From: Pseudomonadota bacterium
GTDB lineage: Bacteria > Myxococcota_A > Polyangia > Polyangiales > JAKSBK01
Assembly: GCA_022361155.1 (NCBI GenBank)
Contig: JAKSBK010000148.1
Location: 1,045 to 65,044, forward strand
DNA: 64,000 nucleotides
Reading direction: 5' to 3'
A model generated the notes under the pieces. That model ran no database searches and was not told the origin of the DNA. It saw only the letters and a program-made list of their open reading frames with translations. The translations under genes were made by a program, and so were the position numbers. Positions within the stretch are counted from its first letter, which is position 1. Each line of letters opens with the position of its first letter. Of the stretch, positions 13,857-64,000 are shown piece by piece.

Positions 13857-13867
13857 CATCACCGATA

Positions 13868-13888: not shown

Positions 13889-13903
13889 AAATTTGTCCCA
13901 AGC

Positions 13904-16102: not shown

Positions 16103-16121
16103 GGGCAAGGAGGCAAGACCC

Positions 16122-19933: not shown

Positions 19934-19966
19934 GGCTGCGACGCCACCGCTGTTGCCGAAACCGCC

Positions 19967-21515: not shown

Positions 21516-21670
21516 GGCCCGGAGCCAACGCGCACGGGCACACCCGCCGGCACGGGTGCGGTCACGAGTCCCCGGTTTGTGATCCGGCGGGCTCGTGATC
21601 CCCGGGCGCCGGGAAGCCGGAGGCACGTAAGAACAGGAAGGATGGGCAGGGGGGAAAGAAGAAGGAATAC

Positions 21671-22651
21671 GTGCATTACGAGCCCCGCCCGGCGTCGCTT
21701 CGCGCCGCAGTGCCGTCCGACTCGACGGCAAGGCTCTGCGAGCGGCATCCCTTCGCGGTGATTCGCGCTGGCGCTGCTGCGAGCGCGGAGGAACTTTCTC
21801 AGCTGGCGCGAGCCATGGTGAGCGAGACCTTGCACGAGGTTGGGGCCGTGCTGTTTCGCAACTACCCGGTCGCATCCGAGAGCGACTTCGAGCGGGTAGC
21901 CGAGGATGTCACACCGGAGCTGCTCGAATACGACTACGCATCCACTCCGCGCACGCGCAGAACGGGCCGCATCTACACGTCGACCGAGTACCCGGCGCAC
22001 CAGCGTATCCCGCCGCACAACGAGATGTCGTACAGCACCAGCTGGCCCCGGGTTCTGTGGTTTTGTTGCCTGACGGCGGCCGGCCAGGGAGGCGCCACCA
22101 CCCTGGCCGACAGCCGTGAAGTCTACCTGAGGCTCGATCCCGGCCTTCGCCGGCGTTTCGAGGAGCGCAAGGTGCTCTACGTGCGCAACTACGGTACGGG
22201 CCTGGATCTGAGCTGGCAGCAAGCTTTCGCTACCGAGCAGCGCAGCAGCGTCGAGGCCTACTGCAGGCGCATGAACATGGCGCACGAGTGGAAGCCCGGC
22301 GGTGTGCTCGAGACCCGGCAGGTGTGTCAGGCCGTGGCGTCGCATCCAGTCAGTAGGGACCCCGTGTGGTTCAATCAAGCGCACCTCTTTCACGTGTCGC
22401 AGCTCGACCCGGAGGTTCGCGAAGCCTTGCTGGAGTCAGTAGCGCCGGAGGATCTGCCGCGTAACGCCTACTACGGCGACGGTGAGCCGCTCGAGGAAAG
22501 CGCGATAGCGGAGATTCGAGCGGCCTACGAGATGTGCAGTTTCGAATTCCCCTGGCAGGAGGGTGACGTGCTGCTGGTCGATAACGTTCGGGTCGCACAT
22601 GGCCGGGCGCCTTTTCGGGGCAAGCGCAGCGTGTTGGTGGCAATGGCCTGA
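21671..22651 (+). CDS. TauD/TfdA-family Fe(II)/2-oxoglutarate dioxygenase (SyrP/AsnO-like amino-acid beta-hydroxylase candidate)
   Basis: GAVLFRNYPV, RIYTSTEYPAHQRIPPHNEMSY (the H-x-D/E facial-triad region), GGATTLADSREVY, VWFNQAHLFH and WQEGDVLLVDNVRVAHGRAPF. It lies 18 nt upstream of the first NRPS gene. Confidence 0.85.
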   Translation: MHYEPRPASLRAAVPSDSTARLCERHPFAVIRAGAAASAEELSQLARAMVSETLHEVGAVLFRNYPVASESDFERVAEDVTPELLEYDYASTPRTRRTGRIYTSTEYPAHQRIPPHNEMSYSTSWPRVLWFCCLTAAGQGGATTLADSREVYLRLDPGLRRRFEERKVLYVRNYGTGLDLSWQQAFATEQRSSVEAYCRRMNMAHEWKPGGVLETRQVCQAVASHPVSRDPVWFNQAHLFHVSQLDPEVREALLESVAPEDLPRNAYYGDGEPLEESAIAEIRAAYEMCSFEFPWQEGDVLLVDNVRVAHGRAPFRGKRSVLVAMA

Positions 22652-22669
22652 GCGCCCCAGGATGATCAC

Positions 22670-24530
22670 GTGACCGGCGACGAGCAAGGGTACCGGCGGG
22701 GGCTGTCTTTGGCAGCGGGCTTCGATCCGCAGGCGAACATCGTTTCGGTGCTGCGAGCGAGAGCCGCCCGCGAGCCGGATCTGCCGGCCTATGTGCTCCT
22801 GGCCGACGGAGACAACGAGCAGCGGCGCCTGAGCTACCGGCAGCTGGACACGGGGGCCGCGCGGATCGCGGGTGCGCTGCAAGCGCGTGGCGCTGCCGGC
22901 GAAACCGTGCTGCTGCTGCACGACGACGGCCTGGATTTCCTGACTGCGTTCTTCGGCTGCCTGTACGCAGGCGCGATCGCGGTGCCTGCGTATCCACCGC
23001 GCAGGCGGCAGCTGCAGCTGCTGGGCGGGATCGTGGCAAGTGCCGACCCACGCCTGATCCTGACGAGCGCGAAGCGTCGCGATTCACTCCAGCGTCGGAC
23101 CAGCGAGCTGCCGATGTTTGCCAACCGGCACTGGCTGGCGTCGAACACGCTTCCGCGGTCGGAGCAGAGCGTGCCGGTGCCGAACGATCCGCCACCAGAG
23201 GCGGTCGCGTTCCTGCAGTACACTTCCGGCTCGACTTCCAGCCCCAAAGGCGTTGTGGTCACGCACGCCAGCTTGGCGGTCAACCTGCATGAGCTTCGTG
23301 TTTCGTTCGCGCATCCCGCTGGCGCGTGGATCGTTTCCTGGTTACCGCTCTACCACGATATGGGGCTGATCAGTGCAGCGCTGCTGGGCGTATACACCGG
23401 CTCACCGGTGGTGCTGATTCCGCCAGTGCGCTTCATCGAACGTCCGGTTCGTTGGCTGAGAGCGATCTCGCGCTACCGGGTGGCGCTGAGCGGCGCTCCG
23501 AATTTCGCATTCGATCTTTGTGTATCCGGGATTGACCCGGCCGAGCGCCAAGGACTCGACCTGCGCAGCTGGCGCTTGGCCTACAACGGCGCCGAACCCG
23601 TATTTGCAGACACGCTCGAGCGCTTTGCCGCGGCCTACGCTCCGTACGGTTTCTCGGCCAACGCGCTATGTCCGAGCTACGGCATGGCCGAGACGTGCGT
23701 ATTCGTTTCGTGCAGCAAGAACGCGCCCAAAGCGCTGACCGCCGGTTTCGACTCCGAGGCACTGGCGCGAGGCCGGGCTCGCCTCGTCAACCCCGCCAAC
23801 CCAGATAACCCGGATAGCCCTGACAGTTCCCACAAGCCTGACACCCGTAACAACCGGACCTCAAGCATTCCTGACACCCGTAACAACCGGACCTCAAGCA
23901 TTCGGCAGCTGGTGGGCTGCGGGCTGCCGCCGTTTGGCGAGCTCGCAATCGTGGATCCCGAGCGACGAACGGCTTGCGAGGACGGACGCATCGGAGAGAT
24001 CTGGCTGCGTGGAGCGAACGTATGCTCCGGGTACTGGAAGAATCCCGAGGCGACGGCGGAGACCTTTGGGGTAGCGCGTGCAGACGTTCCGGTCCAGAGC
24101 GGCGATCCGGGCCGAACCTACCTGCGTACCGGCGACCTGGGTTTCGTCCACCAGGGTCATGTCTTTCTGACGGGACGCAGCAAGGATCTGGTCATCGTCC
24201 GCGGGCGCAACTACTACCCGCAGGACCTCGAGCGCTGCGTCTGCGACGCGGCGCCCGAAATCAGGCCCAACGCCAGCGTGGCCTTCTCGTACGGTGATTC
24301 AAGCCACAAACAGCTGGTGCTGGTTTGCGAGCTCGAGCGCACCCAGGTACGCAAGGACCACGAACGGGTTTTTTTCAAGATCCGCCGGGCACTGAGCCAA
24401 ACGTTCGAGCTACAGCCGGATGCGATCGTGCTGATTCGACCGGGCGCGTTGCCGAGAACTTCCAGCGGTAAACTGCGCAGGCGCACCACCGGACAGCTCT
24501 GGTCGGAGGGCTCGCTCGACGTCGTCGAGC
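22670..24530 (+). other. fatty acyl-AMP ligase (FAAL) loading domain
   Basis: The motifs are FAAL-type rather than A-domain-type: AVPAYPPRRR, FLQYTSGSTSSPKGV, LPLYHDMGLI, GEIWLRGANVCSGYW, DLVIVRGRNYYPQDLE, SSGKLRR. It is followed directly by a carrier domain and a C domain. Confidence 0.85.
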
Positions 24531-27500
24531 GAGACGGGTTGCATCCGCGGCCCCGGGCAGATGGCTCGCCCAGGACCGATGAGTACACGGCCGACGAGCA
24601 CAGGCCCGACGAGCACAGGCCCGACGAGTACACCGTTTTGCGCCGAATGCTCGAGATCGGCGCGAGCGCGCAGCGTGAGGCCTTGTTGCTGCAGTTCGTC
24701 TGCGTGCAGCTCGCCGAGCTGGTGGGTCTGTCGGCGGGAGAGGTGGATCCGAGCGTTACGGCGGTTGAAGCTGGCTTGGGCTCGCTCGGCGCGCTACAGC
24801 TGTGCCAGCGGCTGGGCAGGCTGCTTGGGCGGCCGGTCGATGTGCCGCTGGTGCTCGGCGACCGCTCGCTCCGCGAACTGGTCGGCCTGCTGCTGAGCCC
24901 ACCAGCCGGCGATCCTGGAGCGCACGCCAGCGCGCCGCCCCGCTCGCGCCTCAGCGCGAGCGAATCGACACCAGCGCGCCTCAGCGCGAGCGAATCGGCA
25001 CCAGCGCGCCTCAGCGCGAGCGAATCGACAGCCGCACGCTCCGGCGTAAGCGAATCGGCTCCGCCGCGCTGCAGCGCGGGCGGGCGACAAATCGTTCACA
25101 GCGACCCGAGCGACTATCCACTTTCCTACTCGCAAGAAGCGATCTGGGCGGTCGACCGGCGGGCTACCGGCGCTATCGGCCACAACGTCCACTTGCGCTT
25201 GGGGCTCGAGGGCGCAGTCGACGAAGCTGCGTTGCGCCGTTCGTTTGACGCGCTCGTGCGCCGTCATGCGGCCTTACGCACCCGGTATGTCGAGCAGGCA
25301 GGAAAACCCCGCGCGCAAGTATGCCAGCGCGCCAGCTGCGATTTCGAGCGAATCGAGCTTGTTGCCACGAACGGCGCTCAACAGGAAGCTCGGGTCGCCG
25401 AGCTGATTCGGGAGCCCTTCGATCTCACGCGGGGCGACTTGCTACGCGTGCGTCTGCTCTGCCGGGCCGCCGGGCCCCGCATCCTGTTGCTGGTTGCGCA
25501 CCACATCGCGCTCGATTTCTGGTCGCTGGTCGTTCTCCTGAAGGAGCTCAAGACACTGTACGCCGGCGAACGAGCGGGCGCTGCAGTCTGTCTCCCAGAG
25601 CTCGCTGCGGACTACGCGCAGTTCGCGAGCTGGCAGCGTGCTCGTCTTGCCGCCGAGGGCGCGCGCGACTGGGAGTACTGGCGCAGGGAGCTCGCGGGTG
25701 AGCTGCCGGTGCTCGCGCTGCCGTGGGACCGAGCCCGCGCGGCGTCGCGGGAGTTTCGAGGCGCTTGTGTCACAAGGCTGCTGGGGCGTAAAACAAGCGC
25801 CGAGCTGCTTGGCTTGGGTCGAGCCTGCGCTGCGACGCCCTACACCACCGCATTGGCGCTGTTCGCTGCGCTCCTCGAGCGCTACACCGGGCAGCACGAT
25901 TTCGTTGTCGGTACTCCAAGCGCCGGGCGCACGGACGAGCGCTTTGCCCACGTGGTAGGTTACTTCGTCAATCCCATGGCTCTGCGCCTGCGGGTTCGGG
26001 TGCAGATGTCGTTCCGGGACTTGCTGCACGCGGTGCGCGAAACCGTCAACGGGGCGCTGGCACACCAGCACTACCCGTTTTCCAAGCTGGTGGAACGCTT
26101 GAATCCGGAGCGCAGTGCCGAGCTGTGGCCGCTCTATCAAGTGGCCTTTACGTTGCAGGCCGCTCAGCGGCCGGAGGAGGCGGAGCTGGCGCCGCTTGCG
26201 CTCGGCGACTACCCCATGCGCACGAATTGGGGTGGGCTCGAAATCGCCTCCGCTCGCCTTGGCGAGCGCGTCGAGAACTTCGATCTGAAGCTCGTGATGG
26301 CCCAGACACCGGACGGCCTGGCGGCCTGCTTCCAGTACAACCGCGAGCTGTTCGAGCCGGCAACGCTGGAGCAACTGGCCGGGCACTACGCGCGGCTTGC
26401 CGAAGCCGTAGTCGAGCGCCCGGAGGCGCCGCTTTCCGAGCTTTCGCTCCTGTTCGCCCAGGAGGCGCGCGAGCTCGTCTCGCGCTGGAATGCCACGGGG
26501 TGCGTGCTCGAGCACGCCGACAAACCGGTCGACTGGCACTTCGAGCAGCAAGTGCAGCGGTGCGCCGGATTGCCGGCGCTGGTGGAAGGCAGCCAGACGC
26601 TGAGCTACCAGGCGCTCGACAGGGCGGCGAACCGGCTGGCGCACGCACTTCGAGCCCGAGGCGTGGGGCCGGAGAGCCGCGTCGGCGTGTGCTTGCCGCG
26701 CTCGGCAGATCTGGTGGTCGCACAGCTCGGCGTGCTCAAGGCAGGCGCCGCCTACGTGCCACTGGATCCGGCGTACCCGCCGGCGCGTCTTTCGTGGATG
26801 CTCGGCGACGCATCGATCGAGACCGTGGTGTCTCGGCAAGTGCTGCTTGCGCGTTTGCCTCGACACGTACGCGCCTTGTGCCTGGATCGCGACGCAGCGC
26901 TCCTCGCTGGCTTCGATGCCAGCAAGCCTCCTGTCCGTACCAGCATCGGCTGCAGCCTCGCCTACGTGATCTACACTTCCGGCTCCAGCGGAGTACCCAA
27001 GGGCGTCCAGGTCAGCCACGCTGCGCTGCTCAACTTGGCACGCTGGCACCAGAAGCGCTACGCGGTCACGCCGCTCGATCGCGCCAGCATGGTTGCCAGC
27101 GTCGGCTTCGACGCTTCGGTGTGGGAGCTCTGGCCGTACCTGCTCTCGGGCGCAGCCGTGTACGTTGCACGGGACGCACTGATCGCTGACCCCGATCAGC
27201 TGCTGGGGTGGGTAGCCGAGCGGCGAATCTCGCTGATGTTCTTGCCCACGCCGCTCGCCGAGTTGGTGCTCCGAGCCCATTGGCCCAAGCAGGCAAGGCT
27301 GCGCGCGCTGCTGACGGGCGGCGATCGGTTGGGTCCGGTCACCGGCGATGCTCCGCTGGCAGGGCTCGAGCTCATAAACCACTACGGTCCCACCGAAGCG
27401 GCGGTGGTGACCACGGCGGGCGAGGTCGCGTTCGGGGCGCTCGACGTGCCGGACATCGGCAAACCCATTGCCGATCTGCAGGTTTACGTGCTGGACGAAG

Positions 27501-30500
27501 CGCTACGGCCGGTTCCGAGCGGCGCTTTGGGTGAGCTCTGCATTGCAGGTACGGGGTTGGCTCGGGGGTATGTCGCTCGCCCGGCATGGACCGCGGAGCG
27601 CTTTGTGCCGGATCCTTTTTCGCGTGTGTCAGGCGCGCGCATGTACCGCAGCGGGGACCGAGCGCGGCAACGTGCGAGCGGCGCTATCGAGTACGTGGGT
27701 CGAGCGGATCGCCAGGTCAAGGTACGAGGCCACCGCGTCGAGCTTGGTGAGCTGGAAGCCGCTCTGAAGGCGCTGCCTGGGATCAGGGCCGCCGCGGCTG
27801 CGACCTACCGTGATGCGAACGCCGAGCAGCGCCTGGCGGCCTATGTGGTGCTTGAAGAGGGGAATGCGCCGGGCGCCGGGGACCGGGCGCAGCAGGAAAG
27901 CGCGCACGTCGAGCGCTGGGCCGCGCTCTACGAACAAACATACGCCGGCAGCAACCAGCAGCCCGGCGTGGACTCGCGTTTCAATTTTGCAGGCTGGAAC
28001 AGCAGCTTCACGGAGCGTCCCATTCCTCAGCAGGACATGCGCGAATGGGTGGACGAGACCGCGAAGCGCATTCGCTCGCTCGGAACGCGTCGCGTGTGGG
28101 AGATCGGGTGCGGGATTGGCCTTCTATGCTCGAGACTTGCGGACCGCTGTGCCTACTACCACGGCACGGACCTGTCCGAGCGCGCGATCGAGCAGCTCGG
28201 AGAGCAGCTCGATTCCGATCGGCGTCAAGGCAAGATCACGGGCGAGTTTTGCCTCGAACGGGCGGCCGCCGATCAGGCTCCGGGTTTGCAGCTCCCGGCG
28301 GGCACACAGCTCGATGGGGTGATCCTGAATTCCGTGATCCAGTATTTCCCGTCGCGGCAGTACTTGGAGCGCGTGCTTGAGCGAGCTCTCGATAGCTTGA
28401 AGCAAGGGTACCTGTTCATCGGAGACGTGCGCGATCTCGGGCTGCTCGAGCTGTTCCACACCGATGTGCAGCTTTATCAGGCGCGGCCTGGGCTCTCGCT
28501 GGCCGACTTACGGGTGCGGGCGCGCCAGTTTCGAGAGCGCGAGCAGGAGCTGGCGGTCGGCGCGGCTTTCTTCCACCAGCTCGCGGATCGCTACCCGGGG
28601 GTGGCGGCCGTGGAAGTGCGGCTCAAGCGCGGCCGCTGCCAGAACGAGCTGACGCGCTACCGCTACGATGTGGTGGTCTTCGTGGGGGAGCATCCGCCGA
28701 TCTTCGAGCCGCGGCTCGAGCCCTGGAACACGATCGGATCGCTGGCGGAGCTCGAGCGACGGCTCGAACGCGAGGCGCCCGAATGGTTGGCGCTCGGCGG
28801 TCTGGCTTCGGCGAGGGTGGGGCGCGCGCTCGCGGCGCGCGAGCGGCTGCGGAACCTGGATGCCGGGGCGCTTTCCGCGACGACGGTGGCGGAGCTCTCG
28901 TCTTCGCTTGCCGCGTACGAGGGCGATGCAGTGGATCCCGATGCGCTCTGGCGGCTCGCATCACGCAAGGGCTACCATGCACAGTTGCTGCAGCCGGCGG
29001 ATGGCCAGCCAGGCAGGTTCGACGCGGTGCTGCGGCGTTTGGACTCGCCCCTGCGTGCTTCTCCGCTGCGTCCGAGCGCCGCGGGGCCGGGCACGTTCGA
29101 CGCCGCCGCCTTGACGAACGAGCCTTTGCGGCACCAGCGGATCGCCCAGCACCTGGCTGAGCTGAAGCTGGAGCTCGCGGAGCGGCTTCCCGCACATTCG
29201 CTGCCGAGTGCCTGGCTCGCGCTCGCGTCCCAGCCTCTGGGCCCGAACGGCAAGCTCGACCGGCGCGCTTTGCCGGCCCCCGAGGCGATGACGGCGAGCG
29301 CCCGCTATCGGGCGCCCACGACTGCCTTGGAATGCGAGCTCGCCGGCGTCTGGGAGCAAAAACTGGCGCTGCCGCGCGTGGGCGTGCACGACAACTTCTT
29401 CGAGCTGGGCGGCGACTCCGTGCTTGCGATCCTGGTGGTCAGCGCGCTGCGCGAACGCGGCATCGAAATACACGCGCGCCAGCTTTTTGACACCCAGACC
29501 GTGGCAAGCCTCGCGAACGCGATCGAGGCTGACCGTCGCGGGCGTGCCGGCGACGCGGGCGGGCAGCCTGCGGGGGACGCTACCCCGGGGCCGGATCCGA
29601 CCGATCCGGCCGGCAGCAAGCACGGGCACGGGCTCAGCCCGCTTCAGCAGGGCCTGCTGTTCCACACGCTCTTCGAGCCCCAAGGCGAACGCGCCGAGCC
29701 GTTCTATGTCGAACAAGTTCGGCTCGATCTGCGCGGGCCGTGCGATCCCGATGCGCTGCGGGCTGCCTTGCGCTGTCTGCTCGAACGACACGAGGCGTTG
29801 CGCACGGCGTTCGATGTCTCCGATCCCGAAGTCTTGCAGGCGCACGTGGTGGAGCCCGCGCGGTCTCGACTTCCGTTCGAGCTGCGGGTCGACGCTTGTG
29901 CGAGCGGTGAGCAGGAGCTTGCTCGCTGGCTCGAAGCCGAGCGCGCCCGACCATTCGACTATGCTGTCGCGCCGCTGATGCGTTTCGTCCTGCTGCAGCG
30001 AGCAGCGGACCATGCCTTGTTGGTATGGACCTATCCACACGCGTTGCTCGACGGCTGGAGCAGCGCGCTGCTGGTGCGGGAGCTTCTGGTCATCTACGGC
30101 GCCGTCAAACGCGCGACCGCTCCAAGTCTGCCGAAGCCGGTACCGTTTCGACGCTACCTGGGATGGCTCGAGCGCCAAGATCGGACGCTCGCGCAACGGT
30201 TTTGGACCCGGTACCTGGCAGACTTCGTGCAGGTCCCTCGATTGCGTGATGCCACCGCGTTGCCGGAGCGAACCGCGTCGCCGGAGCGAACCGCGTTGCC
30301 GGAGCGAACCGCGTTGCCGGAGCGAACCGCGTTGCGTGATGCGCGTGACGCCGGGCACACGCCAGGCCGGCCGGCCGCGGTGGAACGCGAGACCGTCGAT
30401 CTCGGCCTGGAGCTGACCGAGACGCTTGCAGCCCGAGGGCGAGAGCTGCGCGTTGCAACAAGCACCTGGTTGCACGCGGCTTGGGCTTTGGTGCTCGGTC

Positions 30501-34405: not shown

Positions 34406-34407
34406 CG

Positions 34408-53645: not shown

Positions 53646-56600
53646 GCATACAGGCGCCGGTCACGGCAGCGACAGCGAGTCGGCGGGCGATCGAGGACAT
53701 CCTTCCGTTGTCGCCCGCTCAGCAGGGCATGCTCTTCCACAGCGTGCTCAGCCCGGAGGCGGCTAGCTATCGCGTCTCGGCCGTGTACCGTCTGGCGGGC
53801 GCGCTCGGCCCCGCGCAGTTTCGCCGCGCATGGAGTGAGGTCTTACGGCGCCACGACGCGCTGCGCAGCGCCTTCGTCTGGCAGGAAGCAGAGCAGCCCC
53901 TGCAGATCGTGCTGCGGGCCGACACCCTCCCGTTGCCGCTCGAGTTTCTGGATTGGCGGGATGCCTCGCCCGCCGGGCAGCGCGCCAGGTTGGAAGCGTT
54001 GCTCGAACAGGAGCTGGCGCGAGGTTTCGAGCTCAAACAGGCGCCCCTGCTGCGCCTTTACCTGGCGACCCTGAGCTCGGACTCATTTTACGTGATCTTC
54101 AGTCATCACCACCTGATTCTCGATGGCTGGAGCAGCGTCGTCTTGCTGGGCGAGGTACTGCGCTTGTGCCAGGAGAATCCGCCGGTGCAAAGCACGCAGC
54201 TCCCACCTGCTACGGCGTACTCGGACTACATTCGCTGGTTGGGCAAGCAGGATCGAGCGGCGGCCCGGTCGTACTGGCAGCGCAGCCTGGCGGGTGTCCC
54301 CGTGCCGACTCCGCTCCCAGGCGATCGCTCCGGCCACGACGGCGGTGCCCGCGGCGACGCGCACGCCTACGCGGAAACCGTCTCTCGTCTGAGCTTGGAC
54401 CAAACCGCACGCCTCAGGGGCTCAGCCGGCAGGCAGCACGTTACGCTGAGCACGCTCCTGCAAGCCGCGTGGGGTCTCGTGCTGGGACGCTATGCCGGCA
54501 CTTCGGATGTGGTTTTTGGAGCTACCGTGTCAGGCCGGCCACCGGGGCTGCCAGAAAGCGAGCGCATGGTTGGCCTGCTCGTCAACAGCCTGCCGGTGCG
54601 TGTGCGCTGGACCGCAGGCACCAACCTCTCGCAGCTGCTGGCCACGCTACATAAGCAGTGCTTGTCGGTACGCGAGCTCGAGTTTAGCGCGCTCTCGGAC
54701 ATCCAGCGCTGGTGCGGAGCCGGGAGGCTATTCGACAGCTTGTTGGTCGTGGATAATTTCCCGCTCGAGCCCCTCAGGGGCGCCGGCTCCCAGCGCTTGC
54801 AGGCGCAGCCGCTGACCAGTGAAGAGCGGGCATTGATCGACCGCTGGACGGCCCAGCGCAATCACTATCCTCTTACGCTGGTCGTTGTGCCTGGTGACCG
54901 ACTGCAGCTCCGTTTGTCCTATCAGCGCAGCCTCTTCAGCGACAAACGCGCCAGGCACTTGCTTGCCGGCGTGCGCGAGACCCTGATCGGGCTCGCCGCA
55001 GCCGCGCCCGGGGCTCCCGCCGGGAGCCTTTGCTTCGCAGCCCGAGACCCCGGCGTGGCGCCGGCGCGGCGCCAGCGGCCGGCCGCGGCCGGTTGGCTGG
55101 CGGCGCTGAGCCTACAGGCCCACAGCGATCCGTGCGCTCCTGCGCTCTTGTGCGAACAGACCGCCGTCGATTGGCGTTCGCTCGATCGGCGCTCGAGCCT
55201 CGTGGCCGCGCGCCTCCGCGCGCGCGGCGTAGTGGAGGAGACTCGGGTGGCGTTGCTGCTGCCGCGCGCTAGCGAGTGGATCGTGGCCATGCTCGGCGTG
55301 CTCAAGGCCGGTGGTGCCTACGTGCCGCTCGATAATCAGGCTCCCCCTGCGCGCCTGCACTACTGCTTGCGGGATTCGGGCGCGCGGTTTGTAATCGCCA
55401 CCTCGGAGCACGACGCACGCCATCGCTGCGGCGAGCAGGCGGCAGCTCGTTTTCTGGTGTGGTCGGACCTCGAGGCCGGGGCCGGCACCGCATCGAACGA
55501 CCCGAGCACGAAGCTCGAATTCGCGCCTCCGCACGCGCAACAGCTCGCCTACATACTTTATACGTCGGGCTCTACCGGCCACCCCAAAGGCGTGGCGGTC
55601 ACGCACCAGAATCTGAGCGAGTACGTGGCGGCTCTCCAGGAGCGGGTGCAGCTGCCGCGCAACGCCCGCTGGGGCTGGCTTTCGAGCGTGGCCGTGGATC
55701 TCGGCAACACCAGCGTGTTTGGCGCCCTCGGCACGGGGCGCCCGCTGGTGGTGGTGAGCGAGCGTGAGGCCGAAAACGCAGATCAGGTGGCGGCACGACT
55801 GCGCTCGGCACAAGTCGATTGCCTGAAGATCGCCCCTTCGCACCTGAGCGCACTACTGAGCGCGGCCGCCGCACCGCAGGGGCTCATTCCACGTCACACG
55901 TTGCTGCTCGGCGGCGAGCCGTTGCACGAGTCGTGCGTACGGCGGGTTCGCGCTCTCGAGCCGGAGTGCCGGATCCTGAACCACTACGGCCCGACCGAAA
56001 CCACGATCGGTGTTACGGCGCACGGGCTGCCCCCGTCCGATGCCGATGAGGCCCGATCCGGCCTCGACAGCGGCGAGCCCGAGGCGCGGCGTATCCATCC
56101 CATCGGTGCTCCCTTCGGGCACGTCGCGATTCGGATTCTAGACAGCAGCGGCCAACCCGCGCCCGAAGGCGGCGCGGGTGAGCTGTGTGTTGCCGGCAGC
56201 GCGCTCGCGCGCGGTTACTTCGGGCGCCCGTCAATGACCGCGGAACGCTTCGTGCCGGATCCCTTTGGGTGCGGCGGGCGACTCTATCGCACGGGCGACA
56301 AGGTGTGCATGCGCGCCGGCCTGTTGCATTTCCTGGGGCGGCTCGACTCGCAGCTGAAGCTGCACGGCCAGCGTATCGAGCCTCAAGAGATCGAGCGTTG
56401 CCTCGCTGGCTGCGCGGGCGTGCTGGCGGCCGCGGTGGACCTGCAGTCTGGACCGCAGGGCGAGCGCTTGGTGGGTTTCTTGGTGTCCGGTCCGGGCTCG
56501 GCGCTCGACCTTACGGCGATCGAGCACGTGCTGCGCGCCGAATTGCCGCGAGGCATGATTCCGGCCGCCTGGAGGGTCTTGTCCGAGCTGCCGCTTTTGC

Positions 56601-59600
56601 CGAGCGGCAAGCTCGACCGCGCATCGCTGCGCAAGCGAGCACCCGATGTGGAACAAGCTCGCTACGACGCTCCCAAGGATGCGCTCGAGGAGCAGCTGGC
56701 CACGATCTGGCGGCACGTGCTGAAGCGCGCACGTATCGGAACGAACGAGAGTTTCTTTGCGCTGGGGGGCGATTCCATCCTCGGCTTGCAGGTCGTGGCG
56801 CGGGCCCGGCGGGCAGGCATTCCGGTCACCCCAAGGCAGCTGTTCGAGGCCAGGACCGTTGCCCGCCTCGCCGAGCTGGTCGGGGACGCGATCGACTCGT
56901 CCGGCAGCCTGCCGGCCCAAACCGGGTCGTGGCTGCTGACGCCGATCCAGCGCTGGTTCTTCGAGCAGGCCATCCCCGACCGCAACCACTTCAACCAAGC
57001 GCTGCTCTTGCCTCTTTCCGAGGCCTTGGAGCGACAGGCGCTGCAACGTGCCTTGGCCCGGATCATCGAGCATCACCCCGTGCTTCGATCGCGCTTTGTG
57101 GCGCGCGAGCAGGACATGGCCGAGCGAGGCTTTCGCCAGGAGCTGCTTGCGAACGCACCGCCGCCGCAGCTGCAGTGGATCACGTCCGAAGGCTTCGACG
57201 AGCTGGAGCTCGGACGCACGGTCGAGCGGGTCTCGCAGGGTTTGCAGCGTTCGCTCGATCTTGGCCGGGGCCGGGTCGTTGCCGCAGCCTATGTTGGCGC
57301 AGCCCATGGCAAGCCGGCCACCGAGCAGGCTCGTGATGCCGACCTGCACGACCGGGCGCCGGCCGGCTACCTGCTCTTGGTGGCGCACCATCTGGTGGTC
57401 GACGCGGTATCGTGGCGGATTCTACTTGACGACTTGCATGCGGCCTACACCGGTAGCCGCCTGTCGGAGCCGTCGCTGCCCTACTCGGCCTGGTCCGAAC
57501 GATTGGCCGCCCGCGCGCGTTCTCCGGAGCTGGCAGGGCAACTCCAGTACTGGCGGCGCCAAGCGCGGCCGCTGGACTTGCCGCTCGACTACACTGGCGA
57601 CCCTGCAAGCGATAATCGCTATCGGGATATGGGCACCGTGCGGCTGGCGCTCGATGCCGGCGAGACCGGCGCCCTGCTACAACACGTTCCAGTGACCTTT
57701 CGCGCGACGCTCGCGGAAGCTGCTCTGTTCGCAGTGGCGCGCGTGCTTGCACGCTGGTGTGGCGGCGAGCGGGCGGGGGTCGAGCTCGAGAGCCACGGCC
57801 GCGAGCTCCCGGGCGCTGAAGAGCTCGACTTGTCGAGCAGCGTGGGCTGGTTCACCGCGCGCTTTCCACTTTCGTTGCACGCGGATCCGAAACTCGACTG
57901 TGCCGCTGGTTTGATTTCGATCAAAGAGCAGCTGCGAGGCGCACCGGATGCGGGCGTGAGCTACGGTGTGTTGCGCTACCTGGATCCGGCCGGTCATGAG
58001 CTCGCTCTCTTGCCTCGCCCGGAAGTCAGCTTCAACTACCTCGGTCGAATCGATCTCGGCCTGCGCAGCGAACGCTGGCTGGCTACCGAGCGCGCCAGGA
58101 CTTTCGAGCTTCCTCATGCGGGCGACCAGCGCGATCCCAACGCCGAGCGCGCGACGTTGCTCGCGATCAATGCGCAGCTGGATGCTGGCTGCCTGCGTTT
58201 TTCCTGGTCCTTCAGCAACGCCCTGCACAAGGCCGAGACCATCCAGGATCTGGCCGAATCGGTACGAGCCGAGCTGCGGGAGCTCGCGGCGAGCGCGGAG
58301 GCTGCCCAACGGGGCGTGATCAGCCCGAGCGACGTTCGGCTTTCGGGTTTTAGCGCACGCGAGCTCGAGGCGCTCGCCGTGGACGGCCGGCAGATCGAGG
58401 ATGTGTACCGCTGCGCTCCGCTGCAGGAGGGGTTGCTCGTTCATGGATTGCTGGATCGGGCGGGGTATGTCTGCCAACTCGCCGCGGAAGTGCAAGGGCT
58501 GGACGCGGATGTGCTCGAGCGCGCCTGGCGCGAGCTCGTGCAGCGGCATGCCATGCTGCGTACCGAGTTCCGGTGGCAGCGCGAAGACGGGGGCGAGCTG
58601 CCTTGGCCCGTGCAAGTAGTTCGTCACGAGGTGGCCGTGCGGGTGCGGCGGCTCGATCTGTCGCAGCTAAGCGAACAGGAGCAGGAGGAGCGCTGGCTCG
58701 CCGAGCTGCGAAACGACACCGAGCAAGGCTACGACCTGGCAAGGGCGCCGCTTTGGCGCTGGCTGGTAGCCGACTGCGGCGGGGGAAGGCAGCGCGTGCT
58801 CTGGAGCAGGCACCACGTCTTGCTCGATGGCTGGTGCTCCTCGCGGCTGCTTGGCGAGCTGACGCTGCTGATCGCAGGGCAGGCGCGCGATCGATCCGTC
58901 CAGTTGCCGCCCGTCGCCGCGTACCGCGACTACATCGCCTGGCTGGCGGCCCAGGACTTGGACGCAGCGGACGCGTTCTTTGAGCGCTGTCTTCGCAGCT
59001 TCGAGCAAGCTACGTCTTTGCCTCTCGACAGCTCTCCAGCGCGGGCTCAGGCCGGCCTGGGTGCTGGGACGCCGCGCGAACGCATGGCTCAGGCGACGCT
59101 CGAGCTCGATGCGTCGGCCAGCGGTCAATTGCGAACCTGGGTTGCGACCCGTGAGCTAACGCTCAACACGCTGTGCCAGGGGGCATGGGCGCTCTTACTT
59201 GCACGAACAAGTGGCGAACAGCGCGTGACTTTCGGCGTCACGGTGAGCGGGCGGCCGGCCGAGCTGCCGGATGTGGAGCACATGTTGGGGCTCTTCATCA
59301 ACAGCCTGCCCCTTTGCGTGGCTTGCCCCTCGGCCGCCCCCGTGGTCGCGTGGCTGAAGCAGCTGCAGGCGTACAACAGCGAGCTGCGACGCTACGAATA
59401 CAGCTCGCTGCGGCGGCTTCAGGCGCGAGCGCATGCGCAGTCTTCGGGCTCGATCAGGGTGCTCTTCGAGAGCTTGTTGGTGTTCGAGAACTATCCACTG
59501 GACGCAGCGCTCCGCCGCCCGGGCCCGCTCAAAGTTCTCCGCGCACACAGTCGGGACTATACCCACTATCCGCTGGCGCTCGTCGTGGTGCCCGGCGAAC

Positions 59601-61741
59601 GCCTGGTCCTGCAGCTGCAGTACGATACGGAGCGCTACAGCGAGCAACGGGCGCGCCGTGTCCTCGACCTGTATTCGAACCTGCTCGGCACCTTGACCCG
59701 GGAGCGCACGGGAGCGCGTCTGGGCGAAATCGGGCTGGCCACGAACAGCAGAGCCTCGCGGGCGAGGCCGCCGCGAGAGCCGCCTCGGGCATGCGGCTCT
59801 GGATCGCTGGGGCGTCTCGAAGTTGGTGACCGATGCGGGCTGGCCGAGCGATTCGAGCGCCAAGTGCGCCGCACTCCGGAACGCGTCGCCGTGAGCTGTG
59901 GTCACAGGAGCTTGAGCTACCGCGAGCTCGACACGCTCGCCAACGGCGTGGCGCAGGCACTGGTGGAGCGCGGTGTAGGTCCCGAATCGGGCGTGGGATT
60001 GTGCGTGGAGCCTTCGCTCGAGCTCGTTCTTGCGGTTCTGGCCGTCCTCAAGACGGGCGCCTACTACGTGCCTTTCGAGCCGCAGCTTCCCGAAGCTAGG
60101 AAGAAGTTCGTGGTGAGCGACGCCAGGCTCAACTGGATCCTGGTCGAGCAGGGACTGGGCGGCGCTTTCGCAGAGCTCGGACCCGGGGTGGAGCTGCTTT
60201 CGGCCTCCGCGCTGAGCGCGAGCTATGGAGCGCGCACCAGGCCGCCAGCCCGAAGCCCACACCCCGAACAGCTCGCGTACGCCATCTACACGTCGGGCAC
60301 CACGGGCAAGCCGAAGGCCGTAGCCGTTGCGCAGCATCAAGTCCTGCGCTTGTTCGCGTCGGCCGAATCTCTGTTCGACTTTCGGGAGCACGACGTGTGG
60401 GCCCTGTTCCACTCGCACGCGTTCGATGTGTCTGTTTGGGAAATCTGGGGCGCGCTGCTTCATGGAGGACGGCTGGTGGTGGTTCCCCAGCAGGTCCGCC
60501 GCGATCCCGACGCGCTCTACGAGTTGCTCGTCAACAACGGTGTGACGGTGCTAAACCAGACCCCCTCCGCGTTCTATCCGTTGGCCGAGCACGTGCTTGG
60601 CCTGCGCGAGCATGAGGGCAACAGCCGGCGTGCGGGACTGAGCCTGCGAAAGATCGTTTTTGCCGGCGAGGTACTGGATCGCGCGCGCCTGCGTCCCTGG
60701 CTGCAAGCATTCGGGGCCACGCATCCGGCGCTGATCAACATGTACGGCATCACCGAAACGACCGTGCACGCAACCTACAGCGAAGTCTTGCCCGAGCAGG
60801 CGGCGCCAGGCCAAGCCGGGTCCATCGGGAGCGCGCTCGACGGCGTGCAAATGCATGTGTTGGATACCGGCGGCAATCCGGCGCCCGAAGGCGTGGCCGG
60901 CGAGCTCTGTGTGGCTGGAGCGGGTGTCGCTCGCGGCTACCTCGATCGGCCGGGCCTGACCGCGGAGCGGTTCGTGCCGAATCCCTTTGGCCCGGCCGGA
61001 AGCCGCATGTACCTGAGCGGGGACCTGGGTCGCCGCCGCGACGATGGCGCGCTCGATTACCTGGGCCGGAGGGATACGCAGGTAAAACTGCGCGGCTACC
61101 GAATCGAGCTAGGCGAGATAGCGGCGGTCTTGCGCCGGCACACGGCCGTCCGCGATGCCGTGGTGACGCTGCTGGACGGCGCCCGGAGCACCGCAAGCAA
61201 GCAAGGGGGGCAACCAAGGCAGCAGCTGGTGGCCTATGTTTCGGGCGACGAGCTGCCTGCCGCGGAGCTCCAGGCATATACCGCGCGCCGGCTGCCCGAG
61301 TACATGGTACCGGCGCACGTCGTATGGCTTCGGTCGCTTCCCCTGACTGCGAACGGCAAGCTCGACGCCAAGGCATTGCCGCCGCCCGAGCCGACGGCGA
61401 GCGGATCGTTCGCCAGCCCGCGCAGCGAGCACGAGCGGGTGTTGTGCGCGATCTGGGCCGAGGTGCTCGAGCGAGAGCGGGTCGGCATCTTCGATGATTT
61501 CTTCGCGCTGGGCGGGGATTCCCTCGCGGCCATGCGCTTGCTGTCGCGCATCTGCTGTGCCCTGCGATGCAGGCTCTCGCTCAGAGACATCTTCGAATGC
61601 CCTAACGTGGCGGCGCTCGGCCTGCGAGTGGCAGTTGCACGTCCAAGGGCGGGTGCCACGGACATCGACCGGATCTCGGCGTTGCTGAGCCGGGCCGAAC
61701 ACGCCAGCGACGACGCCGGCGAGGACGACGCCGGAGACTAG
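53642..61741 (+). CDS. NRPS 4: C-A-T-E-C-A-T (modules 8-9)
   Basis: The ATG overlaps the NRPS 3 stop (ATGA). C: ILPLSPAQQGMLFH, HHHLILDGWS. A: YILYTSGSTGHPKG, VDLGNT, LKIAPSHL, NHYGPTETTIG. T: FFALGGDSILG. E: HHLVVDAVSWRIL. C: VYRCAPLQEGLL, HHVLLDGWCS. A: YAIYTSGTTGKPKA, FDVSVWE, NMYGITETTVH. T: FFALGGDSLAA. The tail is acidic (SDDAGEDDAGD). Confidence 0.95.
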   Translation: MSIQAPVTAATASRRAIEDILPLSPAQQGMLFHSVLSPEAASYRVSAVYRLAGALGPAQFRRAWSEVLRRHDALRSAFVWQEAEQPLQIVLRADTLPLPLEFLDWRDASPAGQRARLEALLEQELARGFELKQAPLLRLYLATLSSDSFYVIFSHHHLILDGWSSVVLLGEVLRLCQENPPVQSTQLPPATAYSDYIRWLGKQDRAAARSYWQRSLAGVPVPTPLPGDRSGHDGGARGDAHAYAETVSRLSLDQTARLRGSAGRQHVTLSTLLQAAWGLVLGRYAGTSDVVFGATVSGRPPGLPESERMVGLLVNSLPVRVRWTAGTNLSQLLATLHKQCLSVRELEFSALSDIQRWCGAGRLFDSLLVVDNFPLEPLRGAGSQRLQAQPLTSEERALIDRWTAQRNHYPLTLVVVPGDRLQLRLSYQRSLFSDKRARHLLAGVRETLIGLAAAAPGAPAGSLCFAARDPGVAPARRQRPAAAGWLAALSLQAHSDPCAPALLCEQTAVDWRSLDRRSSLVAARLRARGVVEETRVALLLPRASEWIVAMLGVLKAGGAYVPLDNQAPPARLHYCLRDSGARFVIATSEHDARHRCGEQAAARFLVWSDLEAGAGTASNDPSTKLEFAPPHAQQLAYILYTSGSTGHPKGVAVTHQNLSEYVAALQERVQLPRNARWGWLSSVAVDLGNTSVFGALGTGRPLVVVSEREAENADQVAARLRSAQVDCLKIAPSHLSALLSAAAAPQGLIPRHTLLLGGEPLHESCVRRVRALEPECRILNHYGPTETTIGVTAHGLPPSDADEARSGLDSGEPEARRIHPIGAPFGHVAIRILDSSGQPAPEGGAGELCVAGSALARGYFGRPSMTAERFVPDPFGCGGRLYRTGDKVCMRAGLLHFLGRLDSQLKLHGQRIEPQEIERCLAGCAGVLAAAVDLQSGPQGERLVGFLVSGPGSALDLTAIEHVLRAELPRGMIPAAWRVLSELPLLPSGKLDRASLRKRAPDVEQARYDAPKDALEEQLATIWRHVLKRARIGTNESFFALGGDSILGLQVVARARRAGIPVTPRQLFEARTVARLAELVGDAIDSSGSLPAQTGSWLLTPIQRWFFEQAIPDRNHFNQALLLPLSEALERQALQRALARIIEHHPVLRSRFVAREQDMAERGFRQELLANAPPPQLQWITSEGFDELELGRTVERVSQGLQRSLDLGRGRVVAAAYVGAAHGKPATEQARDADLHDRAPAGYLLLVAHHLVVDAVSWRILLDDLHAAYTGSRLSEPSLPYSAWSERLAARARSPELAGQLQYWRRQARPLDLPLDYTGDPASDNRYRDMGTVRLALDAGETGALLQHVPVTFRATLAEAALFAVARVLARWCGGERAGVELESHGRELPGAEELDLSSSVGWFTARFPLSLHADPKLDCAAGLISIKEQLRGAPDAGVSYGVLRYLDPAGHELALLPRPEVSFNYLGRIDLGLRSERWLATERARTFELPHAGDQRDPNAERATLLAINAQLDAGCLRFSWSFSNALHKAETIQDLAESVRAELRELAASAEAAQRGVISPSDVRLSGFSARELEALAVDGRQIEDVYRCAPLQEGLLVHGLLDRAGYVCQLAAEVQGLDADVLERAWRELVQRHAMLRTEFRWQREDGGELPWPVQVVRHEVAVRVRRLDLSQLSEQEQEERWLAELRNDTEQGYDLARAPLWRWLVADCGGGRQRVLWSRHHVLLDGWCSSRLLGELTLLIAGQARDRSVQLPPVAAYRDYIAWLAAQDLDAADAFFERCLRSFEQATSLPLDSSPARAQAGLGAGTPRERMAQATLELDASASGQLRTWVATRELTLNTLCQGAWALLLARTSGEQRVTFGVTVSGRPAELPDVEHMLGLFINSLPLCVACPSAAPVVAWLKQLQAYNSELRRYEYSSLRRLQARAHAQSSGSIRVLFESLLVFENYPLDAALRRPGPLKVLRAHSRDYTHYPLALVVVPGERLVLQLQYDTERYSEQRARRVLDLYSNLLGTLTRERTGARLGEIGLATNSRASRARPPREPPRACGSGSLGRLEVGDRCGLAERFERQVRRTPERVAVSCGHRSLSYRELDTLANGVAQALVERGVGPESGVGLCVEPSLELVLAVLAVLKTGAYYVPFEPQLPEARKKFVVSDARLNWILVEQGLGGAFAELGPGVELLSASALSASYGARTRPPARSPHPEQLAYAIYTSGTTGKPKAVAVAQHQVLRLFASAESLFDFREHDVWALFHSHAFDVSVWEIWGALLHGGRLVVVPQQVRRDPDALYELLVNNGVTVLNQTPSAFYPLAEHVLGLREHEGNSRRAGLSLRKIVFAGEVLDRARLRPWLQAFGATHPALINMYGITETTVHATYSEVLPEQAAPGQAGSIGSALDGVQMHVLDTGGNPAPEGVAGELCVAGAGVARGYLDRPGLTAERFVPNPFGPAGSRMYLSGDLGRRRDDGALDYLGRRDTQVKLRGYRIELGEIAAVLRRHTAVRDAVVTLLDGARSTASKQGGQPRQQLVAYVSGDELPAAELQAYTARRLPEYMVPAHVVWLRSLPLTANGKLDAKALPPPEPTASGSFASPRSEHERVLCAIWAEVLERERVGIFDDFFALGGDSLAAMRLLSRICCALRCRLSLRDIFECPNVAALGLRVAVARPRAGATDIDRISALLSRAEHASDDAGEDDAGD
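59816..59840. repeat. dispersed short element, copy C (inside NRPS 4, C-A linker)
   Basis: CTCGAAGTTGGTGACCGATGCGGGC is identical over 25 nt to 11272-11296. It is read in frame as LEVGDRCG. Confidence 0.6.
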
Positions 61742-61749
61742 GCACCGCG

Positions 61750-64000
61750 ATGACCATGGCTTCTCGCAGGCCCCGACCGCAGCCCGCGTCGTCGCCCAGG
61801 GAGCTCGCCGAGCTCGGCCGGCGTCTGACCGCGCTGCCGCAAGCCAAGCGCGAGCGCTTCCTGCAGACGCTGGCACAACAGGGCATCGATCCCTGGCTCA
61901 TTCCCATTGCGTCGCGCCCTGTGTCGCAGCTCGAGGCGAGCCGGTGTGCTCCGCTCTCGTTCGCCCAGGAACGGCTGCGTCTCCAGCAAGCGCTCGTACC
62001 CGATAGCCCGCGTCTCAACCTGTTCGGTGCTTTTCGTTTGAGCGGCCGTCTGGAATTGGATGCGCTACGGCGCGCTTTTCTGCGCGTTGTCCGCCGTCAC
62101 GAAAGCCTGCGGACCAGTGTGGTCACCGACGGCACCGGTAGCTGGCAGCGAATTCATGCGCCCGAAGAGGTAACCCTGCCGCAATGGCCCGAGGGAGTCC
62201 TAGAGCTCGAGGGCTGTGGCGAAGCAGCCCAAGAGGCGGTGTTGCGTGCCCGGGCGCTGCGGGAGGCGAGTAAACCCTTCGAGCTTTCCAGCGCGCCGCT
62301 TTGGCGCGTTCGCGTGCTTAGGCTGGCTGCGGGCGAGCATGCGTTGCTGCTGGTGCTGCACCACCTGATCGCCGACGCCTGGTCGCTCAAGACGCTGGTC
62401 GAGGAACTGGGCAATGCGTACCGGTACGAGCTCGGTGAGCCCGGTGGCCCCGCCGAGCACGACGAAGCGCGCCCGCCTGTCCAGTACGCGGACTTCGCCC
62501 TCTGGCAGCGACAGTGGTTGCGAAGCGCTGCGGGCGAGCAGCAGCTCGCCTACTGGAAGGCCCAGCTGGTCGGGACGGAACCAAGCCTGGCGCTGATCGA
62601 AGAGCGTGCGGCGTCGCGGTCCGATGCTTTCGACGGGCGGATCGAACGCTTGCTGTTGTCGCCGGAGCTGTCGCTCCAGATCCGCGAGCGTGCAGCCGCG
62701 CTCGGCATGACGCCCTATATGCTGTTGCTCGCGGCGTTTCAGATCCTGCTTCACCGCCTGACGGGTCAGCAGGAGCTGTGCGTGGGAGCGTCCGTGGCCG
62801 ATCGTCCTCGGCCCGAGCTGGAGCGTTCGATTGGCTTTTACGTGAATCTGGTCGCGTTACGTGCCCGCTTCGAGCGCACTGCCAGCGCGAGCCAGCTGCT
62901 GGCGCAGGCACGCGACGCAGTGCTCGGAGCCATGGACCACCGTGACGTTCCCTTCGATCGCGTTGTCGAGGCGGTGCGCCCGGAGCGCAACCCGGTCGAG
63001 CAACCGCTTTTTCAGGCCTTGTTCGTGATGCAGAATGCGCCTCGAGCCGAGCTGGTATTGCCGGGTTTGCAGCTCATACCAATCGAGCTCGAGCAGCGCT
63101 TTGCGCGCTACACCCTGAGCCTGCGGGTAACCCCTCGCGTTGCTGGGCGCTTTGGTTTCGGCCTGGAGTACCGTGTGGATTGCTGGAGCGCCGAGACCGC
63201 CCGGAGCGCGCTCCGGCAATACGCAGGATTGATCGAGCAGCTGGTTGCCCACCCGCAACGACGGCTACGTGAGCTGGTTTGGAGCGGGCCGCTGCCCGCC
63301 GGGGCGCCGCCGGCAGTCGAGCCAACCGAGCCGATGACACCCCGCAAGCGTATCGAGACCTGCTTCATGGACGCGGCGGCTCGCCACCCCGAGCGGATCG
63401 CGGTAGCCACGCCGGCGCGGTCGGTCTGTTATGGCGAGCTTGCCGGCGCTGCTCGTGAGCTGGCGGTGCAGCTACGCGAGCGCGGTGTGGGCCTCGAGGA
63501 ACCGGTCGCCGTATGCCTCGAGCCGGGTATCGAGATCATCGAGGCCTTGCTCGCGGTGCTCCAGGCTCGAGCCGTGTTCGTGCCGCTGGATCCGCAATGG
63601 CCTGAGGCGCGAATCGAGAGCGTGGCGCTTGCCTCGGGTGCGCGCTGGTTGATAGCCGCTGCGGGTCAGCAACGGCCACGAGCCCCCGAGCCGGCCGGGC
63701 AGGAGGCTGGTGACCGCTGCGGGCTGGAGCTCAGGCCGGTCGCGGGCGCGCGGAAGCGTCCGGCGCGCTCCGGCGGAGTCGGGCCGTACCCCGCACAGCT
63801 GCCGGCAGCGACCCTGGCCTACATCATGTTCACGTCGGGCTCCACGGGCCGGCCCAAAGGGGTGGGCGTCACGCACGAGAGCGTGCTCGCGTACGTCGAG
63901 ACGCTGTCGGCGCGCATGGCCTTGTCCGGCGCCGCGCGCTTGTTGTGGGCCTCGGGCGTTGCCGCCGACCTGGGCTATACGAGCGTCTGGTGCGCGCTGT
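61750..64000 (+). CDS. NRPS 5, 3' end outside the window: N-terminal extension, C, start of A (module 10)
   Basis: This gene is not in the supplied ORF track because there is no stop in the window; I translated it by hand. The frame (positions = 1 mod 3) is open from ATG 61750 to the window end. It was checked in frame at HHLIADAWS (62359) and at YIMFTSGSTGRPKG (63820). C-domain start: APLSFAQERLRLQQ. A-domain: VCYGELAGAARELAVQLRERGVG, and then VAADLGYTSVW at the edge. Confidence 0.9.
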   Translation, partial: MTMASRRPRPQPASSPRELAELGRRLTALPQAKRERFLQTLAQQGIDPWLIPIASRPVSQLEASRCAPLSFAQERLRLQQALVPDSPRLNLFGAFRLSGRLELDALRRAFLRVVRRHESLRTSVVTDGTGSWQRIHAPEEVTLPQWPEGVLELEGCGEAAQEAVLRARALREASKPFELSSAPLWRVRVLRLAAGEHALLLVLHHLIADAWSLKTLVEELGNAYRYELGEPGGPAEHDEARPPVQYADFALWQRQWLRSAAGEQQLAYWKAQLVGTEPSLALIEERAASRSDAFDGRIERLLLSPELSLQIRERAAALGMTPYMLLLAAFQILLHRLTGQQELCVGASVADRPRPELERSIGFYVNLVALRARFERTASASQLLAQARDAVLGAMDHRDVPFDRVVEAVRPERNPVEQPLFQALFVMQNAPRAELVLPGLQLIPIELEQRFARYTLSLRVTPRVAGRFGFGLEYRVDCWSAETARSALRQYAGLIEQLVAHPQRRLRELVWSGPLPAGAPPAVEPTEPMTPRKRIETCFMDAAARHPERIAVATPARSVCYGELAGAARELAVQLRERGVGLEEPVAVCLEPGIEIIEALLAVLQARAVFVPLDPQWPEARIESVALASGARWLIAAAGQQRPRAPEPAGQEAGDRCGLELRPVAGARKRPARSGGVGPYPAQLPAATLAYIMFTSGSTGRPKGVGVTHESVLAYVETLSARMALSGAARLLWASGVAADLGYTSVWCAL
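63706..63729. repeat. dispersed short element, copy D (inside NRPS 5, A domain variable loop)
   Basis: GCTGGTGACCGCTGCGGGCTGG matches copy C GTTGGTGACCGATGCGGGCTGG with two mismatches. It is read in frame as AGDRCGL. Confidence 0.45.

Follow-up and report, generated by a model that had tools for sequence, protein, structure and literature searches.

A truncated nonribosomal peptide synthetase gene cluster, preceded by a SyrP-like dioxygenase gene and predicted to specify an acidic lipopeptide, in a metagenome-assembled bacterial genome

The synthetases of daptomycin, CDA and A54145 start their peptides with a fatty-acid–AMP ligase (FAAL) and an acyl carrier protein (ACP), which are usually separate proteins, and these products have multiple Asp residues, D-residues and TauD-type hydroxylation, along with an Asp-X-Asp-Gly motif and a cyclising thioesterase. 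The β-hydroxyaspartate siderophores (potashchelin, taiwachelin, cupriachelin, serobactin and cyanochelin) combine an acyl-loading module and a hydrophilic Ser/Thr/Asp peptide with a TauD Asp hydroxylase encoded beside the nonribosomal peptide synthetase (NRPS) (PMC7100376). They have up to about nine extension modules, a hydroxamate end and monooxygenase/acetyltransferase genes. SyrP, of the syringomycin system, is an aspartate hydroxylase for an NRPS product (PMC3207962). Here we describe an NRPS gene cluster with features of each of these systems. It lies in a 64,000-nt stretch of DNA (the window) that covers positions 1,045 to 65,044 of contig JAKSBK010000148.1 in assembly GCA_022361155.1, placed by GTDB in the Polyangiales (Myxococcota_A). 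Six co-directional genes, all on the + strand, make up the locus: a TauD/TfdA gene (g0) and five NRPS genes (g1 to g5). The cluster very probably specifies a thiotemplate line that makes an acidic, N-acylated peptide of 10 or more residues, rich in Thr, Ser and Asp.

Nine complete modules and a partial tenth are carried by the five synthetase genes, whose domains are abbreviated here as C (condensation), A (adenylation), MT (methyltransferase), T (carrier) and E (epimerisation). The first, g1 (nt 22670-34405, 3911 aa), has the order FAAL-ACP-C-A(MT)-T-C-A-T-E and comprises modules 1 and 2. It is followed by g2 (nt 34408-42372, 2654 aa; C-A-T-E-C-A-T, modules 3 and 4), g3 (nt 42369-53645, 3758 aa; C-A-T-C-A-T-C-A-T-E, modules 5, 6 and 7) and g4 (nt 53642-61741, 2699 aa; C-A-T-E-C-A-T, modules 8 and 9). 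The last, g5 (nt 61750-64000), is cut at the window end, and its 750 visible aa comprise a 66-aa N-terminal extension, a C domain (aa 67-512) and the first ~210 aa of the A domain of module 10. This layout was obtained by Pfam scans, per-domain phmmer mapping, motif scans and an alignment of all 14 C-like domains. Pfam matches to the Condensation, AMP-binding and PP-binding families (E-values of 1e-29 to 1e-277) were of the order and number expected. Motifs A3, A7, A8 and A10, the T serines and the C/E His motifs are all present, as in multimodular type A linear NRPS, and the catalytic residues are kept throughout, namely the second His in all C and E domains, the serine in all T domains and the Lys of motif A10. 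The reading frames run for ~42 kb without an internal stop or frameshift. The g1 stop codon (TAG, nt 34403-34405) is closely followed by the g2 start (ATG, nt 34408), ATGA overlaps link g2 to g3 (nt 42369) and g3 to g4 (nt 53642), and an 8-nt gap separates the TAG of g4 (nt 61739-61741) from the ATG of g5 (nt 61750).

A first-pass annotation, made by a model from the sequence letters and open reading frames, had described a FAAL-primed NRPS lipopeptide line running past the window, with this domain order in the five NRPS genes, these tight junctions and no thioesterase in the window; all of this was recovered here. It went astray at the left end. There, five co-directional genes had been counted and the synthetase had been started at nt 21671, but the open reading frame that begins at this position is a separate TauD/TfdA gene of 326 aa (g0, nt 21671-22651), which ends in a TGA at nt 22649-22651. 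The FAAL gene starts 19 nt further on with a GTG (nt 22670) that has an AGGA 9 nt upstream. Both genes lie in one reading frame, which probably led to their being merged. A fusion of g0 to the FAAL by read-through or sequencing error was considered and rejected. The stop is repeated in an independent ENA scaffold (L144, covering nt 18455-23373 of the window with 12 mismatches over 4919 nt), where the same 326-aa gene is followed by the next gene 19 nt on, and GenBank lists a separate gene (MCG8554676.1). The GenBank gene models for g2 and g4 also agree with the present calls; their products, identical to MCG8554678.1 and MCG8554680.1, bear no annotation beyond 'amino acid adenylation domain-containing protein', and each forms a singleton when clustered at 90% identity. 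The proteins encoded in the flanks have the same sequences as GenBank entries MCG8554662-MCG8554674, from a metagenome-assembled genome (MAG) with the label 'Proteobacteria bacterium'. Exact look-ups of g3 and g4 led to no contig.

The FAAL domain (nt 22721-24529, aa 18-620 of g1) matches NCBIfam fatty-acid–AMP ligase families and Pfam PF23024. Its top NCBIfam scores, to PRK05850 (400.8 bits), PRK12476 (371.3 bits) and FadD32 (350.8 bits), are followed by CoA-ligase families at 158.6-286.6 bits; the scores stay below whole-protein cut-offs, since the domain is split by a low-complexity insertion (~aa 375-412) that contains a 33-nt tandem repeat and interrupts the family profiles. An insertion that blocks the CoA reaction is specific to FAALs. 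Database relatives of this region are FAAL-ACP and FAAL-ACP-C proteins. The ACP that follows (nt 24632-24904, ~aa 655-745) is divergent and was not called by Pfam at 1e-5. Its phosphopantetheine serine (aa 705, nt 24782-24784) lies in the motif AGLGS, where GLDS is usual (YGLDS in homologues), and is invariant in a column-for-column alignment with five FAAL-ACP homologues. The rest of g1 consists of a C domain (aa 815-1270), the A domain with its N-methyltransferase (aa 1295-2195), T (aa 2223-2285), and then C (aa 2320-2790), A (aa 2826-3327), T (aa 3359-3421) and E (aa 3444-3900). The backbone N-methyltransferase of module 1 (nt 27740-28816) is inserted between motifs A8 and A10, scores 187.8 bits to the interrupted A domain of TioS (PDB 5wmm) and contains the motifs VWEIGCGIG and NELTRYRYDV, with Pfam methyltransferase matches at aa 1789-1927. 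In-frame tandem DNA repeats with units of 33, 15, 30 and 18 nt occur in g1 at nt 23837-23903, 24571-24632, 24945-25082 and 30254-30335; they encode repeated peptides in loops and linkers, the first within the FAAL, the second ahead of the ACP, the third (SRLSASESxPA units) between the ACP and the C domain, and the fourth (ERTALP units) within the second C domain.

Specificity codes were extracted by aligning each A domain to GrsA-PheA, a reference that returned its own code (DAWTIAAICK) in a control run, which validates the numbering; a multiple alignment settled two local ambiguities. All nine full codes of the first-pass annotation, and the D-L-x-x-T start of the partial module 10 (Asp-like), were reproduced. 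Modules 1 and 6 share the code DAWFLGHVV, which is one change from the classical Leu code and was read as Leu-like. Modules 3 (DLTKIGHIG) and 8 (DLTKLGHIG) have Asp codes, module 5 (DFWNVGMVH) has a Thr code and module 7 (DGWQAGVVD) is Gln/Glu-like without a firm assignment, while modules 2 and 4 (both DFWSVGMVH) belong to the Thr/Dhb group (PMC12283262). Module 9 (DVWNVAMVH) had been left unassigned, but can be assigned to L-Ser because exactly this code is found in an L-Ser domain characterised for tistrellabactin, a siderophore (DVWNVAMVHK; PMC10391617, Table 1). The predicted chain is acyl-(NMe)Leu-like, D-Thr, D-(β-OH?)Asp, Thr, Thr, Leu-like, D-Gln/Glu-like, D-(β-OH?)Asp, Ser, (β-OH?)Asp-like and further residues. 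The stereochemistry proposed at first pass was incomplete, given three DCL-type C domains without an upstream E domain, and the probable β-hydroxylation of Asp had been missed. The three Asp-code modules (3, 8 and 10) all open their proteins (starts at nt 34408, 53642 and 61750).

If the line is colinear, the FAAL would activate a free fatty acid as acyl-AMP and load it onto the fused ACP, and an LCL-type C domain would pass the acyl group to the Leu-like residue 1, which would be N-methylated by the interrupted A domain. Eight further complete modules would then add Thr (epimerised), Asp (epimerised), Thr, Thr, a Leu-like residue, a Gln/Glu-like residue (epimerised), Asp (epimerised) and Ser, with the tenth, Asp-like module starting before the window end. 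Judging by its family and context, g0 would hydroxylate carrier-bound Asp at C-3 in trans, so that some or all of the three Asp residues may be β-hydroxy-Asp. The N-terminal extension of g5 (nt 61750-61947), which contains ELAELGRRLTALPQAKRERFLQTLAQQGIDPW, could serve for docking to the C-terminus of g4.

The g0 protein belongs to Pfam PF02668 (168.8 bits) and shares 54-65% identity with TauD proteins of Sorangium, Polyangiales and Pseudomonas cichorii. The P. cichorii relatives (54-55% identity) bear a legacy SyrP-type name, and some relatives are named 'pyoverdine biosynthesis regulatory protein', an old SyrP misannotation. Like SyrP and its homologues in pyoverdine clusters, g0 is a stand-alone PF02668 enzyme. 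Its gene lies beside an NRPS whose partner modules include E domains, in a host other than Pseudomonas, and these are differences from the SyrP group. Since the line that starts 19 nt downstream has three Asp-code modules of the DLTK type, β-hydroxylation is the most economical reading, and g0 probably makes β-hydroxy-Asp. In siderophore pathways the Asp module reportedly contains a partner 'interface' domain, C-like and non-catalytic, an arrangement said to have been described by Reitz et al. in 2019. There is no extra C-like domain in the present line: each one can be classed as C or E, with its catalytic His in place.

In the alignment, the C-like domains separated into four E domains, three C domains of the LCL type and seven of the DCL type. 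All four E domains keep HHxxxD and group together, and the two that were searched against solved structures, those of g1 and g2, matched E domains only (PvdL, BacC, TycA/B and GrsA). E domains after Asp modules are more divergent (192.1 vs 318 bits). The two of them form a subgroup of their own, 37% identical to each other and 31-35% to the other two. That they might be non-epimerase 'interface' domains is unsupported, as the g2 E domain matches E structures only and the HH motif is kept. The LCL-type trio consists of the first C domains of g1, g3 and g5, for which Txo1, Txo2 and TycC were the best solved structures (208.4 and 206.5 bits for Txo1 and Txo2). For the first C domain of g1, a starter-type or dehydrating identity was also considered and rejected: Txo1, of the LCL type, scored 208.4 bits, against 51.7-57.4 bits for starter-type domains (CDA peptide synthetase I and entries 7c1h, 7c1k and 7c1p, which we take to be RzmA) and 46.4 bits for AmbE.

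As expected, an E domain precedes four of the seven DCL-type domains. The remaining three, namely the second C domain of g1 and the second and third of g3 (g1C2, g3C2 and g3C3), directly follow a T domain, after modules 1, 5 and 6. The best structures for g3C3 are shared with the post-E domain g2C1 and are McyB, PvdL, BacC, SrfA-C and TycB, in all of which the matched C domain presumably follows an E domain; the top two, McyB and PvdL, gave 244-250 bits for g3C3 and 271-308 bits for g2C1, against 66-91 bits for LCL structures. Lying in the DCL/dual clade and following T without E, these orphan domains resemble the dual E/C domains of Pseudomonas lipopeptides. The latter are marked by a second, N-terminally placed His motif, HH[I/L]xxxxGD (PMC1894796), and by the motif LGGHSI in the upstream T domain and a T1-C1 spacing of 95-105 aa (PMC10212144). 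All three hallmarks are missing here and a canonical dual E/C identity was rejected: at the N-terminal His motif g1C2 has HTLFEPQGE, with no counterpart in g3C2 and g3C3, the T domains upstream show GGDSV, GGDSI and GGDSI, and the T-to-C spacing is ~67-82 aa. Among the nine T domains, eight have a GGDS core (e.g. nt 29396-29422), and only that of module 4 (nt 42178-42204) has GGHSL, which is usual before an LCL-type C domain. In this line, carriers have the E-type signature by default, so it does not discriminate here.

Teixobactin is a partial parallel, as its first residue is also N-methylated by an interrupted A domain and its synthetases Txo1 and Txo2 are matched by the LCL-type domains of g1, g3 and g5, but it is non-lipidated, has 11 residues of another composition and comes from a betaproteobacterium. 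Its D-residues, which we take to arise without dedicated E domains, may be a further parallel.

Several points weigh against a lipopeptide line as outlined. Colinear prediction of stereochemistry fails at residues 1, 5 and 6 because of the three DCL-type C domains that have no E domain upstream. The relatives of g0 hydroxylate Asp, Asn, Glu or other residues (PMC7100376), and g0 itself found no equivalog placement in NCBIfam. The codes of modules 1 and 6 (DAWFLGHVV) and of module 7 (DGWQAGVVD) did not occur in the searchable literature. Within the window there is no thioesterase domain, GxSxG motif or thioesterase gene, nor a gene for a reductase, an MbtH-like protein, a transporter or a phosphopantetheinyl transferase. 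The cluster is truncated: the source contig is 66,324 bp long, so at most ~2.3 kb lie beyond the window, and chain release and any further modules lie beyond the contig. Independent coverage consists of short-read metagenome scaffolds over the first 1.7 kb (to nt 23373), and the reading as a whole is a prediction from sequence.

Two roles for the predicted product are about equally likely, neither reaching even odds, with a slight lean towards a metal-binding amphiphile. It is possible that the product is an amphiphilic β-hydroxyaspartate acyl-peptide metallophore, in which three β-hydroxy-Asp residues would give three bidentate α-hydroxycarboxylate ligands for Fe(III) or another metal. The three Asp-code modules together with the SyrP-like hydroxylase point this way, as does the code of module 9, which equals that of a Ser domain of a siderophore. 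A Thr/Ser/Asp headgroup on an acyl tail also resembles the potashchelins, which likewise have an acyl-loading module and a stand-alone TauD protein (PMC7100376). The genomic setting is consistent with this role: ~3.8 kb upstream of the cluster, and in the same direction, is a TonB-dependent receptor-HmuY operon with two Fur-box-like repeats in front of it, and more genes related to metal transport (for a ZnuD-like receptor, an ArsP/ZIP permease and an ArsR-type regulator) are also found upstream. The two receptors, however, are best matched as heme or zinc types (TonB-hemin 178 vs TonB-siderophore 91.1 bits; ZnuD 122 vs 41.1 bits), all with scores below curated cut-offs, and the TauD gene itself is not directly preceded by a Fur-like box. 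Hydroxamate or catecholate genes, a reductase and an exporter were not seen in the window. The described β-hydroxyaspartate siderophores also differ from a line with at least 10 modules, N-methylation, Leu-like residues and no hydroxamate genes seen, and their sequence identity to it is at the generic NRPS level only. N-methylation, Leu-like residues and a length of at least 10 residues are unusual for that class.

A possibility of the same standing is an antibiotic or surfactant of the acidic lipopeptide class, maybe calcium-dependent like daptomycin, CDA, A54145 and malacidin, or similar to the β-hydroxy-Asp-rich plusbacin and empedopeptin. Lipoinitiation by FAAL and ACP, several D-residues, N-methylation and a length of at least 10 residues are all in keeping with this. 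Residues 8-10 are predicted as Asp-Ser-Asp, which we take, as a lead only, to be the first three places of an Asp-X-Asp-Gly-like triad; the stereo-pattern is nevertheless unlike the daptomycin motif, since Asp8 is followed by an E domain, and residue 11 and the release/cyclisation domain lie outside the window. A TauD-family hydroxylase is found with CDA, A54145 and malacidin as well (in part PMC7100376). Against an antibiotic stand the absence of resistance or export genes from the window and the identity to actinobacterial synthetases, which is only that generic to NRPS (31-40%); no orthology to the daptomycin, CDA and A54145 synthetases was detectable.

Whichever role applies to the predicted lipopeptide, it is rather doubtful that the product founds a family of N-methylated, β-hydroxy-Asp-rich lipopeptides in a deep, uncultured Myxococcota lineage, with the three orphan DCL-type C domains being an epimerising or D-selective variant that lacks the dual E/C hallmarks. 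Far less probable still is an artefact, with the 42 kb being either a decaying array of pseudogenes or a metagenome assembly in which several different synthetases were joined as a chimera or collapsed. In favour of an artefact are the origin from a short-read MAG, the tendency of NRPS repeats to be misassembled, the lack of entries in the protein collection for g1 and g3 with the present limits, and the fact that independent scaffolds from this population end at or close to the cluster start. Against it, the catalytic motifs are intact with no stop or frameshift in 42 kb, the GC content is even across the region (0.64-0.69), ATGA-coupled junctions link the genes, C-domain types follow E domains consistently across gene boundaries, and the modules are 60-82% identical over at most 200 nt of DNA, which is too short to collapse, so that with inter-module repeats of no more than ~82% identity there is no sign of assembly collapse.

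Database relatives of the predicted lipopeptide synthetase are distant. The best non-self identity was 44% for the FAAL-ACP region (5.8 billion clusters), 40% for module 3 (1.84 billion representatives) and, for g5, 39% among 185,579 species genomes and 45% in JGI metagenomes, with relatives in the range of 27-45%. No orthologous cluster and no relative above 45% identity appeared in these searches, consistent with the first-pass annotation, which had recognised no characterised product. A characterised cluster in public databases would be expected among these matches, MIBiG itself being outside the search. Haliangium and Myxococcus are among the named organisms with the nearest relatives of module 3. 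It is plausible that the genome comes from a deep, uncultured lineage of the Myxococcota, the 'myxobacterial' label resting on the identity of a flanking protein (a fused MFS/spermidine synthase) to proteins of Myxococcales/Myxococcota MAGs (54, 43 and 41%). The cluster is a new, orphan and truncated member of a well-known type of system, real and without a new principle, and its interest lies in the product and in the non-canonical pattern of C domains. If expressed, it would yield an acidic lipopeptide from a lineage without a cultured representative, and such lipopeptides are candidate antibiotics or metal chelators. The co-occurrence of classical E domains and orphan DCL-type C domains could help to refine rules for predicting stereochemistry. 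Orphan NRPS clusters of such design are found by the thousands in genome mining, and this one, being truncated and metagenomic, opens no long-standing question by itself.

The metal-related genes upstream of the cluster fall into two groups. Nearest to it is an operon-like run of overlapping genes on the + strand (nt 13868-19275) that encodes a TonB-dependent receptor (best matched to the heme/hemoglobin type), a 594-aa protein with three HmuY repeats, a DUF3501 protein fused to an OmpR/PhoB-type DNA-binding domain (without a receiver domain) and a 90-aa open reading frame. In the AT-rich gap before the receptor gene, the direct repeat TTGAAAATCAAAGTCAA(A/T)TTC occurs at nt 13685-13709 and 13864-13888; its copies match the Fur-box consensus at 12-14 of 19 positions and are the best Fur-like matches of the whole window. 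A peroxiredoxin gene and two open reading frames without a family match separate this run from the TauD gene. Further upstream, nt 4755-7346 and 8677-11144 carry a second TonB-dependent receptor (weakly best to the ZnuD zinc-piracy type), an ArsR-type helix-turn-helix protein on the - strand and a 630-aa ArsP/ZIP-like permease, a neighbourhood that suggests metal homeostasis. The metal-transport genes are flanked by genes for a DUF5122 β-propeller protein (nt 32-1291), the fused MFS/spermidine-synthase-like membrane protein mentioned above (nt 1379-4195), of which the closest relative is the Myxococcales MAG protein at 54% identity, and a 778-aa Kelch-repeat protein on the - strand (nt 11341-13677).

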